Assembly (NCBI GenBank): GCA_049599475.1 | Contig: JBMYOQ010000086.1 | Location: 1 to 15,755 of the forward strand | Direction: 5' to 3' | Length of the DNA: 15,755 nucleotides | From: Opitutales bacterium | Lineage (GTDB): Bacteria > Verrucomicrobiota > Verrucomicrobiia > Opitutales > JABSRG01 | In this document: piece after piece, positions 13,570 to 15,094 of the stretch | Position numbering within the stretch: position 1 is the first letter of the stretch | Layout of the letters: each line of letters starts with the position of its first letter | Notes under the pieces: model-generated | Told to the model about the DNA's origin: nothing | What the model saw: only the letters and a program-made list of their open reading frames with translations | Database searches by the model: none | Translations under genes and position numbers: made by a program

Positions 13570-13639
13570 AACCACTAATGAGCACGAATAAACACGAATG
13601 CGGCGCCGTCATATGGTGAATCCGTGTTCATTCGTGGTT
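13570..13639. repeat. Left copy of a ~70-80-nt self-complementary (hairpin-forming) repeat element
   Basis: aaccactaatgagcacgaataaacacgaatg-cggcgccg-...gtgaatccgtgttcattcgtggtt. Its reverse complement matches 15015-15094 apart from a 10-nt indel. Repeated cacgaat heptamers. Confidence 0.7.
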
Positions 13640-13851
13640 CCTTTAATAAACGTGAGATCACGAAATAACTTTTGAGAAATCTTATAACGAAGTAGTCTTA
13701 GGCCGAACTGTCCCGGTGAACCGCGTCATTTACGCCTTTGTTAGGCCCTCGTTCGGCTCACTCTTCAATTTCTCTGCGAAAATAATTCCGAGAACGGGTA
13801 TAGCCCGTTTTTAGCATTTACATCAATGACTCGTTTTCTAGCGATGTCAGA

Positions 13852-14985
13852 GTGAAATTCTATTACCTTAACCATTTGAACGTAGAGGTCGGCCCCATCC
13901 TGCCCTTTGAGTTTTCTGCACTGGTTAAGAGCGGAGACGTCCAAGCGGATACACTTGTCCGACAAGAGGATCAGACCGAATACGTGATTTATTCGAGCCT
14001 ATCCGAGGAGATGCTCAGTGCTCAAGCGAAGGTGCCTCAAGCACTGGATTCTAGCGAAAATTACTTTTACGAAAGAGAAGATGAGGTCTATGGGCCCTAT
14101 GGGCTGAAACAGTTAAAAAAGGCCGTGGCTCTCGGTGTGATCTCAAAGGAGACGCCCGTATGCCCGGAACATTCAGAGTCATGGACGCCCCTTCACAAAA
14201 CTGAGCTCCATCGGCTACTCGAAGGTGACAATGCGAGTAAAAGCGGGCCCAAAAAGCGGAGGCTGCAATTGAAGCCGAAAAACTCAGGAGTCACCCCTCC
14301 CCCCGTTAAACATCCGGTACGTCCGGAGCCAGCCGCCCCGTTCCCTGAGCAAAAAGTAGCCAAAGCGGAAAGTCCGCAAATTCAATATACACCAGTGACC
14401 ATAGGCAACTGGATCCTAACTTTTGTAATCTGCTCCATTCCACTGGTGGGACTATGCGCAAACCTATATTGGACATTTAGCTCCAAAACACACCCATCCA
14501 AACAGACATGGTTTCGAGCAGGTTGGGTAATGATAGGCTTCATCGTGGCAGTGGGTGCTGCGATACCAGCCTTACAAACACTCCAGAAAGTAATCATAGA
14601 CAAATACACTTTTGATATCTCCTATCTACTGTTCCCAGCGCTTCTGATCGGAATCATAGCCTGGTTTATAACAAGGGATTCAGGCAAGGGGCTGTATAAA
14701 AAAGATCCGGAGGACCCCAAGAGCTCCCTCTATGAACTACAAATTTCTATCTCTGATTGGCTCTTCGCAAATTTTATGCTGGTGATCCCAGTAGCTAACC
14801 TCGCATACCTGATCTACTGTTGTGCCAGTTTAAGCACAAAACCATCTAAGAAATCATGGGCAGCCGCCACTCTGATTTTCATAGGATCCGTAGTAATTCT
14901 GTCAGTAGCTCTCTACTTGCTGCTGATTGTCCTCGGAGTAGCACCTTCACATATTAGTTCTACTTCGTTAATTGGTTTGGAATGA
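13852..14985 (+). CDS. Membrane protein with two N-terminal DUF4339/GYF-like domains, a Pro-rich linker and a duplicated 2-TM module
   Basis: GTG start. KFYYLNHLNVEVGPILPFEFSAL and NYFYEREDEVYGPYGLKQLKKAV match the DUF4339 YY...GP...eL pattern. About 5 TM helices. Internal repeat NWILTFVICSIPLVGLCANLYWTFSSKTHPSKQTW / DWLFANFMLVIPVANLAYLIYCCASLSTKPSKKSW. Confidence 0.65.
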   Translation: MKFYYLNHLNVEVGPILPFEFSALVKSGDVQADTLVRQEDQTEYVIYSSLSEEMLSAQAKVPQALDSSENYFYEREDEVYGPYGLKQLKKAVALGVISKETPVCPEHSESWTPLHKTELHRLLEGDNASKSGPKKRRLQLKPKNSGVTPPPVKHPVRPEPAAPFPEQKVAKAESPQIQYTPVTIGNWILTFVICSIPLVGLCANLYWTFSSKTHPSKQTWFRAGWVMIGFIVAVGAAIPALQTLQKVIIDKYTFDISYLLFPALLIGIIAWFITRDSGKGLYKKDPEDPKSSLYELQISISDWLFANFMLVIPVANLAYLIYCCASLSTKPSKKSWAAATLIFIGSVVILSVALYLLLIVLGVAPSHISSTSLIGLE

Positions 14986-15014
14986 CAATCTTGAGTTCAC
15001 CAAGCTTATAAAAG

Positions 15015-15094
15015 GAACCACGAATGAACACGGATTCACACGAATTCTCCATACTACGGCGCCGCATTCGTGTTTATTCGTGCTCATTCGTGGT
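15015..15094. repeat. Right copy (inverted) of the self-complementary repeat element
   Basis: ggaaccacgaatgaacacggattcac[acgaattctc]catactacggcgccgcattcgtgtttattcgtgctcattcgtggtt is the reverse complement of 13570-13639 with a 10-nt insertion. Confidence 0.7.

Follow-up and report, generated by a model that had tools for sequence, protein, structure and literature searches.

Small dispersed palindromic repeats with a nuclease-gene partner are a kind of element already known, from the repetitive extragenic palindromic (REP) sequences with their REP-associated tyrosine transposase (RAYT) genes and from miniature inverted-repeat transposable elements (MITEs). Among the latter, the long-hairpin Correia elements of Neisseria and the enterobacterial repetitive intergenic consensus/intergenic repeat unit (ERIC/IRU) elements are non-coding sequences of 100-180 nt with terminal inverted repeats and a variable centre, which lie dispersed between genes, can fold into hairpins as RNA or DNA and in some cases reach into the ends of open reading frames (ORFs); the Correia elements duplicate TA. 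In the intervening sequences (IVS) of 23S rRNA, an ORF for an S23p/four-helix-bundle protein is placed between stem-forming inverted repeats within rRNA helices. The hallmark given for REPs is a GTAG/CGTC head on a palindromic unit of 20-40 nt (PMC3733652). The locus described here carries two inverted, self-complementary repeats around a gene for a GYF_2 (DUF4339) membrane protein; it lies in a stretch of 15,755 nt, hereafter the window, which is a complete contig (JBMYOQ010000086.1, assembly GCA_049599475.1) of an Opitutales metagenome-assembled genome (MAG) with ordinary chromosomal gene content. The two repeats are probably solo copies, one intact and one decaying, of a palindromic element associated with genes of the PD-(D/E)XK family GxxExxY, and their appearance is that of a selfish element's relics or satellites rather than of private terminators of the gene between them.

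A preliminary description, made from the letters alone, had placed the two copies at 13570-13639 and 15015-15094, as reverse complements apart from a 10-nt indel. Inverted-repeat search of the window and alignment bear out this arrangement: one inverted pair, 13533-13636 / 15029-15132, spans 104 nt with 85% complementarity, and a second, register-shifted pair, 13616-13654 / 15001-15039, spans 39 nt with 92%. The size then given, about 70-80 nt, describes the core, but the repeated unit is longer: 13533-13695 aligns with the reverse complement of 14960-15132 in 134 of 160 columns (84%). The outer-flank similarity of the two copies exceeds that of all 500 shuffles; that of the distal inner part is of marginal significance (p about 0.04). 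The features of the locus are these:

13533-13695, + strand: left copy, decayed; outer flank 13533-13569, core 13570-13639, inner flank to about 13655 and, more weakly, to 13695
13570-13599, + strand: 5' arm of the left copy, AACCACTAAT GAGCACGAAT AAACACGAAT; three 10-nt units, unit 1 mutated to CACTAAT
13620-13639, + strand: 3' arm of the left copy, ATCCGTGTTC ATTCGTGGTT; two units left, one 10-nt unit deleted relative to the right copy
13852-14985, + strand: bracketed gene, 377 aa, GTG start, N-terminal GYF_2 (DUF4339) domains followed by hydrophobic repeats/transmembrane segments
14955-15133, + strand: right copy, intact; composite palindrome with an outer 17-bp stem (14955-14971 / 15117-15133) around the core hairpin
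15016-15045, + strand: 5' arm of the right copy, AACCACGAAT-GAACACGGAT-TCACACGAAT; three units, tandem-repeat finder (TRF) period 10, 2.9 copies, fitting the family consensus
15046-15065, + strand: loop of the right copy, TCTCCATACTACGGCGCCGC, 20 nt, containing GGCGCC and common to the left copy
15066-15095, + strand: 3' arm of the right copy, ATTCGTGTTT-ATTCGTGCTC-ATTCGTGGTT; three inverted units, TRF period 10, 3.1 copies

The arms, 30 nt long in copies of about 125-180 nt, are built of 10-nt units of the form nnnCACGAAT. The heptamer repeats noticed earlier are thus real, and they are confined to the elements: CACGAAT occurs eight times in the window (2.46 expected; eight was reached in none of 200 shuffles), and all eight occurrences lie inside the two copies. 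The indel is the only gap in the left/right alignment and equals exactly one repeat unit, GAGAATTCGT, absent from the left copy. The right copy is intact (3+3 units) and the left copy decayed (3+2). Both match the arm consensus described below, in which three boxes stand at 9-10-nt spacing, and both carry the loop version marked by GCGGCGCC; outside the boxes the palindrome is extended by TTAACCACG...CGTGGTTAA / AACCAC...GTGGTT. Folding separates the two copies. The arms of the right copy pair over 30 nt with 87% complementarity, its core folds at -45 to -49 kcal/mol on both strands (z about -5), and the composite palindrome of 179 nt reaches -63.6 kcal/mol (z -6.9), a stability matched by none of 200 shuffles. 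The left copy, which has lost one unit and the outer stem, folds at the level of its shuffles (z -1.5).

As had been stated, the copies lie 212 nt (left) and 30 nt (right) from the gene, and no transposase lies between them, the sole gene there encoding GYF_2 domains plus transmembrane segments. The 5' part of the right copy overlaps the final 10 codons of the GYF ORF. The check for a target-site duplication proposed earlier came out negative: neither the single copies nor the pair as a whole (13533/15132) are bordered by direct repeats. A 22-mer, TTACATCAATGACTCGTTTTCT, at 13818-13839, 13 nt upstream of the GTG start of the GYF gene, is identical at 18 of 22 positions to the reverse complement of 15099-15120 and is related to the outer flank of both copies; it could be a third partial copy or a chance match. 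A third copy suggested by a weak repeat at the contig start was ruled out by alignment, and where 7510-7531 and 8611-8634 resemble the arms, chance or a terminator was taken as the reason.

The arm is not peculiar to this genome. An exact scan for the 18-mer CCACGAATGARCACGRAT over one genome per species (596 Gb) returned at least 120 stretches. About 69 matches are expected by chance, so that membership of the family rests on the third box and the partner arm. Among the matches listed, a third CACGAAT box, matching in at least 6 of 7 bases, stands exactly in the 10-nt register in 109 of 143, for which the chance is about 0.1% each; 89 of 144 arms have an inverted partner; and in 119 of 143 matches at least one of these two features is present. 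A logo of 140 arms reads A(A/G)CCACGAAT-GAACACGAAT-nnACACGAAT; conservation drops sharply on both sides and stops at position 28, and the sequence upstream is A-rich. Loops, mostly of 10-140 nt (range 10-400 nt), are unrelated between genomes. The MITE- or REP-like dispersal suggested earlier is thereby supported: verified loci number at least about 100 and come from more than 12 phyla plus some viral contigs. They include Verrucomicrobiota, Planctomycetota, Acidobacteriota, Bacteroidota, Chloroflexota, Desulfobacterota, Nitrospinota, Lentisphaerota, Abditibacteriota and others, as well as Alpha-, Beta-, Gamma- and Zetaproteobacteria, among them the isolate Asticcacaulis biprosthecium C19, and several lie on Mb-scale chromosomes. 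In IMG/VR the arm occurs in 28 stretches, mostly as a single arm between genes, and at least 10 of these are verified by a third box or partner arm. The right hairpin has no BLAST match in the PLSDB plasmids or INPHARED phages, and no Rfam family, at gathering or permissive thresholds, covers the window hairpins or related loci.

Copies within one genome have a common loop sequence together with 10-20 nt of flank, as in three copies of a Bryobacteraceae MAG and two of a Verrucomicrobiota contig; related copies number two in the window contig and 2-4 in other genomes. Since same-genome copies, the window pair included, share loops, they have been copied as units. The elements also nest: CACGGAT-type hairpins lie within loops of other elements, and in A. 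biprosthecium C19 (locus L062, 2750-2965) a CGCGAAT-type three-box hairpin lies inside the loop of a CACGAAT-type one. Across the family the two ends of an element are complementary in the 3-4 nt beyond the boxes (TTAA..TTAA, TGG..CCA, GAA..TTC), without direct repetition; thus there is no target-site duplication.

Several variations on the arm occur. In Candidatus Versatilivorator and other Terriglobia, arms bound non-coding inserts of 150-400 nt (L039 2165-2507, L072 1907-2062, L088 535-911, L111 541-817; the same type in L012, L037, L096 and L121) with conserved ends next to the arm (...ATACGGATGGACCTCCTTCAACGAC...), matched by no Rfam family. A Planctomyces sp. MAG contig starts with a tandem array (L047, 1-240) of at least seven 34-35-nt units, in each of which a small hairpin (GTGGTTCAAAACCAC) comes after a two-box arm (ATTCGTGTCCATTCGTGG), in effect a minisatellite built from the arm. 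In three viral contigs of IMG/VR (L146 at 7790 and L153 at 5093 compared with L151 at 2690), a common gene precedes a single arm and the sequence downstream is wholly different, as if the arm stood at a junction between mosaic segments; the same contigs abound in other short intergenic repeats of periodic type (CACAGAT, ATCATAA, GTCAATA). In L142, L144 and L154 an NlpC/P60-like ORF begins at an ATG inside the arm (MNTNKHK...).

The arms are associated with one gene family. When all ORFs within 300 nt of arms were clustered, the only real recurrent family consisted of proteins of about 125 aa matching TIGR04256 (GxxExxY) and PF13366 (PDDEXK_3), and no transposase-like cluster was found among these ORFs. 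The insertion sequence (IS) origin considered in the preliminary description is accordingly not supported, the GxxExxY PD-(D/E)XK nuclease gene being the only recurrent partner. In the loci selected by their arms, six of eight GxxExxY genes have arms directly beside them, usually as arm, gene and inverted arm in this order, and CACGAAT arms abut such genes in L024, L034, L067, L101 and L110. An independent start from the protein gave the same association. Eighty metagenomic GxxExxY loci were fetched, of which 73 were usable, and 130 nt upstream were compared with 135 nt downstream for an inverted match of at least 20/24 nt; such a match was present in 34 of 73 loci, as against 3 of 73 mismatched controls. 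The flanking arms are again heptamers with a 9-10-nt period: CGCAGAT, CACAGAT, CGCGAAT, CACGAAT, CGCTAAT and CACGAAG.

Individual loci give examples of the cassette. In L235 (2480-2925) a GxxExxY cassette with arms of 3+3 boxes, identical in 21 Logan contigs, lies inside an operon, after the stop codon of a gene for a FAD-binding protein and before the ribosome-binding site of the gene for a NiFe-hydrogenase small subunit. The cultured Bacteroides finegoldii has the order radA, [CACAGAG x3], GxxExxY, [CTCTGTG x3], FAD-dependent protein gene, and a relative of the window genome, whose RtcB is 85% identical (L124), carries a GxxExxY gene with CGCTAAT arms inside a tRNA array. The annotated N-termini MKPRINSNEHE, MNTNEHE and MDTNDTN are translated arms. 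A WOR-3 MAG (L067, 511-1945) and a Planctomycetota MAG (L110, 6601-7749) have nearly the same two-gene row of arm, GxxExxY, arm, a protein of 227-316 aa without Pfam hit, and inverted arm, a near-identity that indicates recent transfer or mis-binning. The residues D, E/D-x-K and GxxExxY are invariant, and judging from these the protein looks like an active nuclease; the fold search returned a generic Cas4/RecB-like PD-(D/E)XK core that did not reveal the substrate. Pfam lists the function of GxxExxY/PDDEXK_3 as unknown, as does a survey of the superfamily, which notes 'multiple transfers' between divisions (PMC3424549).

Heptamer arms thus normally bracket GxxExxY genes, and on this ground solo hairpins would stand to GxxExxY cassettes as MITEs stand to insertion sequences, or REPINs (paired REPs forming hairpins) to RAYT genes. 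The window has no GxxExxY gene and the loops measure 20 nt; therefore both copies are solo forms.

Whether the conserved feature of the arms is a DNA site or an RNA stem bears directly on the best-surviving alternative, namely that the hairpins are ordinary terminators or insulators that stop or process the transcripts of RtcB, the GYF gene and the 3-keto-disaccharide hydrolase gene at their ends, with a similarity that is incidental or due to local duplication. The setting agrees with it. The right copy lies between convergent genes, 30 nt after the GYF stop, and the left copy downstream of RtcB; a T-rich tail (TTCCTTTAAT / TTCCTTTTAT), flagged by the terminator scan, faces the GYF gene in both copies; and among the family loci 26 hairpins lie between tandem, 14 between convergent and 3 between divergent genes, often 10-30 nt past a stop codon. 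The A-rich sequence upstream of arms, moreover, entails T-rich sequence downstream of the partner arm. What the scan flagged was only a terminal 5-bp sub-hairpin with TTCCTTT(A/T)AT, only on the GYF-facing side, and no U-tract follows the right copy on the GYF sense strand. Folding was compared between the two strands because the 10-nt register makes G·U versus A·C counts ambiguous: of 28 hairpins located between co-directional genes, 14 fold better on the sense strand and 14 on the antisense strand (p 0.92), so there is no strand bias of the G·U type. In 59 hairpins anchored at the outer boxes and compared with shuffled partners, linker positions 18 and 19 pair at chance level (36% vs 39% and 29% vs 28% shuffled), while the outer positions -1 to -4 co-vary (93% vs 52%, 73% vs 58%, 64% vs 33% and 47% vs 32%). 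Pairing alone cannot account for a heptamer that recurs three times in each arm and is kept across phyla. With boxes spaced by one helical turn, unconstrained linkers and termini that match, the arms have the look of protein-recognised element ends; the pattern points to a DNA-level terminal repeat with no selected RNA stem.

Further observations tell against terminators at this locus in particular. RtcB already possesses a classic one, recovered by the terminator scan:

13456-13484, + strand: RtcB's own GC-rich terminator hairpin, upstream of the left copy and outside the element

The orthologous-locus comparison called for earlier could be made with two relatives. In the closest one, whose RtcB is 88% identical at the amino-acid level (alignment with L126), this terminator is conserved, the CACGAAT hairpin is absent and the downstream genes differ (Fic/HipA). 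The 85% relative has other downstream genes again and, some 200 nt past RtcB, no more than a decayed string resembling an arm, ATTGGTGTTTATTTGTTTCCATTAGTG. Synteny with both ends right after RtcB, every downstream gene being different, and the window hairpins, which stand at this break and are absent from the 88% relative, are therefore no conserved gene-specific structures. Terminators need no common sequence, yet the same 30-nt three-box arm recurs across phyla with unrelated loops, and arms are also found singly and around whole genes; the left copy, moreover, folds like shuffled sequence. Termination as the reason for these hairpins is thus unlikely. Of the insulator or terminator role entertained in the preliminary description, the T-rich tails and the positions mostly 3' of genes stand, while a sense-strand advantage and linker covariation are lacking; such a role is at most secondary.

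A second alternative takes the whole 1.6 kb of 13533-15132 as one mobile or exchangeable unit with inverted ends of about 165 nt and the GYF gene as cargo, that is, a foldback or composite element or a cassette swapped by recombination; this is close to the mobile unit with a passenger gene first proposed. The similarity of the inverted copies reaches about 40 nt past the hairpin on the outer sides, and synteny with both RtcB relatives stops just past RtcB. The GYF gene itself (Pfam GYF_2, E=7e-14) is an orphan, with no homologue besides itself among 5.8 billion proteins. Elsewhere, too, arms bracket whole genes, both GxxExxY and the protein of up to 316 aa in L067/L110, and the homology of related viral contigs ends at an arm (L146/L153 vs L151). 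A unit of this kind nevertheless lacks a target-site duplication at 13533/15132; a second copy of the gene or of the arm-plus-loop version was found nowhere, a metagenome scan for the latter giving 0 matches; and GC content (0.474) and codon usage of the gene match those of its neighbours, with no foreign signature. The flanking copies are non-coding and no autonomous IS elements, and they have diverged by 16%, the left one being short of one unit and the outer stem. Because each copy is a full palindrome, two independent insertions explain the layout equally, random orientation giving an inverted pair half the time. The GYF gene is at most putative cargo, and the unit as a whole seems rather improbable.

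Under a third alternative, the six CACGAAT boxes of each element would be an operator-like array that binds a host regulator or nucleoid protein, with no mobility involved. Box spacing of one helical turn, conservation confined to the boxes with free linkers, and the 22-mer akin to the outer flank that precedes the GYF start by 13 nt are what such an array would show. However, neighbouring genes are unrelated between loci, the elements mostly follow genes rather than occupying promoter regions, and no DNA-binding family recurs nearby, the sole recurrent neighbour being a nuclease; nesting and the common loops of same-genome copies speak against it as well, and the proposal is quite improbable. 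In a last, very remote reading, the hairpins would be attC-like folded recombination sites at cassette boundaries, read as single strands by a site-specific recombinase. The variable-length imperfect palindromes with heptamer boxes at the ends and a variable centre just after genes, and the arm-gene-arm-gene-arm rows of L067 and L110, may be cited for it. Against it, the window cores read GTTAACA and GTTCCTT, not GTTRRRY, the two copies are oppositely oriented, and no integrase or recombinase occurs among the window ORFs or recurs near arms.

Solo copies of one version, about 165-180 nt long, of a GxxExxY-associated element thus remain the favoured explanation, and a mode of action can be outlined in which the enzyme and the mode of spread are inferred. 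The repeated boxes would be protein-recognition sites on DNA, and the candidate cutter at the arms or at the palindrome centre would be a GxxExxY-type nuclease acting in trans. Copies may spread or exchange through repair or recombination, by cut-and-repair or homing at the palindrome centre, without target-site duplication. The loop may serve as the entry point for new elements and genes, which would explain the nesting. The layout in the window would most simply result from two element insertions or from an old inverted duplication. An effect of the hairpins as terminator or insulator would be a by-product; as the T-rich tails face the GYF gene in both copies, such insulation is plausible.

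Several points weigh against this interpretation. A pair of empty and filled sites was not found, nor was a true empty site among the RtcB relatives, and mobility is for this reason deduced from distribution. For the source organism, the evidence on copies and on a trans partner is limited to this 15.7-kb contig, in which an HMM search in six frames found no GxxExxY gene. The raw number of 18-mer matches (at least 120 vs about 69 expected by chance) is not significant by itself, and the MAG taxonomy of short contigs may be wrong. The arms overlap the 5' end of the GxxExxY gene and the annotated N-termini (MKPRINSNEHE..., MNTNEHE...), and the association of arm and gene could reflect an RNA-level or regulatory feature of the cassette, with the arms not being the nuclease substrate. 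Divergent contexts, moreover, make up 3 of 43 where 17-22% are expected, a modest depletion (p 0.015 by length, 0.10 by count) which also fits a role at transcript 3' ends.

On a larger scale, it is possible, and is put forward tentatively, that GxxExxY genes with periodic-heptamer arms form an unrecognised class of minimal selfish DNA elements in many phyla. Its autonomous form would be an arm-gene-arm cassette of about 0.5 kb, and its non-autonomous forms solo palindromes of 60-180 nt, which would act as homing or recombination sites, take insertions in their loops and mark boundaries of gene exchange between genomes and phages, possibly including the orphan GYF gene. In environmental bacteria, few small proteins of unknown function are as common as those of GxxExxY/PDDEXK_3. 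As a rule a stereotyped terminal repeat encloses their genes, and gene-less copies of it are scattered over many phyla and some viral contigs. This suggests for the family a function that can be tested, that of a nuclease directed at the palindrome around its own gene, and a new kind of small dispersed repeat is defined as well. The arm of three boxes, the fact that it is conserved across phyla, the insertions into loops and the GxxExxY partner appear undescribed in Rfam and in the literature searched; a search of the literature, though not exhaustive, found no published description of the arm sequence or of arms flanking GxxExxY/PDDEXK_3 genes.

There are practical consequences as well. Such repeats break short-read assemblies, as in this contig: the Logan short-read contigs of the source sample terminate at both window copies, and the two copies alone would cause these breaks. 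Arms also yield spurious N-terminal extensions in gene calls (MNTNEHE..., MKPRINSNEHE...), and the elements insert inside operons. In the present contig the hairpins should be annotated as repeat elements and not as terminators of the GYF gene.

The remainder of the window encodes a thymidine kinase, a GSDH-cytochrome c protein, a GH9 protein, a FecCD/ABC transporter and a PNPOx protein, then three tRNA-like genes, Band_7, RtcB, the GYF_2/membrane protein and the 3-keto-disaccharide hydrolase. The tRNA-like genes (9325-9545; Rfam tRNA, 47-55 bits) stand head to tail upstream of the Band_7-hypothetical-RtcB cluster, and ARAGORN assigns them abnormal anticodon loops: a 6-nt loop ('aa'), Asn(att) in the palindromic arm TTGATAATTAATCAA, and His(atg). 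Asn(att) and His(atg) are A34 versions of tRNAs that normally have G34. At the same place the 85% relative (L124, 4034-5847) has an array of 11 tRNAs with normal His(gtg), Asn(gtt) and Phe(gaa) and an odd Asp(atc); it might be speculated that odd tRNAs beside an RNA-repair ligase relate to attack by anticodon nucleases. Between PNPOx and the tRNA-like genes, about 1 kb (8322-9324) has no ORF call or Pfam hit and contains terminator-like hairpins (e.g., 8594-8622); the matching region of L124 carries the tRNA array and the GxxExxY cassette. At the contig end (15711-15755), two copies of TTTGCGGGTYAAAGTGCACC, 25 nt apart, immediately precede the start of the 3-keto-disaccharide hydrolase gene; since the repeat is cut off by the end of the contig, the array may extend further.

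Set beside the described systems, the elements share with long-hairpin MITEs their size, terminal inverted repeats, variable centre, intergenic dispersal, hairpin folding and overlap with ORF ends. They differ in that their arms are built of periodic boxes, come without target-site duplication and insert into each other's loops, and in having no known parent IS that carries a DDE transposase. The likeness to REPs, REPINs and RAYT genes extends further: in both cases short extragenic palindromic repeats form long hairpins, lie mostly between tandem or convergent genes, spread without target-site duplication and, as full copies, stand inverted on the two sides of a small nuclease-type gene and are far more numerous than this gene. 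Here, however, the arm consists of three direct heptamer boxes at 10-nt spacing, is not itself palindromic and lacks the GTAG/CGTC head. Its gene partner is a PD-(D/E)XK protein of the GxxExxY family and not a Y1 HUH transposase, and no Y1 (HUH) RAYT gene recurs next to the arms, no search with a dedicated RAYT profile having been made. The arm sequence is common to many phyla, whereas REPs are lineage-specific, and copies per genome are apparently low in the loci seen here.

The IVS of 23S rRNA offer another parallel in a small, selfish-looking ORF between pairing arms, inserted neatly into a host transcription unit and belonging to a family abundant in the same phyla, but the sites described here are intergenic DNA of protein operons and the gene family is a different one. 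Integron attC sites are likewise imperfect palindromes of variable length at the 3' ends of genes, with 7-nt boxes at the ends and a variable middle; unlike them, the present elements have three boxes per arm instead of two, and no GTTRRRY core, integrase or single-orientation array. Free-standing homing endonucleases of the PD-(D/E)XK type (e.g., I-Ssp6803I) are similar in another respect, since in both a small nuclease gene lies in the middle of a symmetric DNA site that also occurs unoccupied at other places, as homing would lead one to expect; among these nucleases, I-Bth0305I is a weak Foldseek match to GxxExxY.

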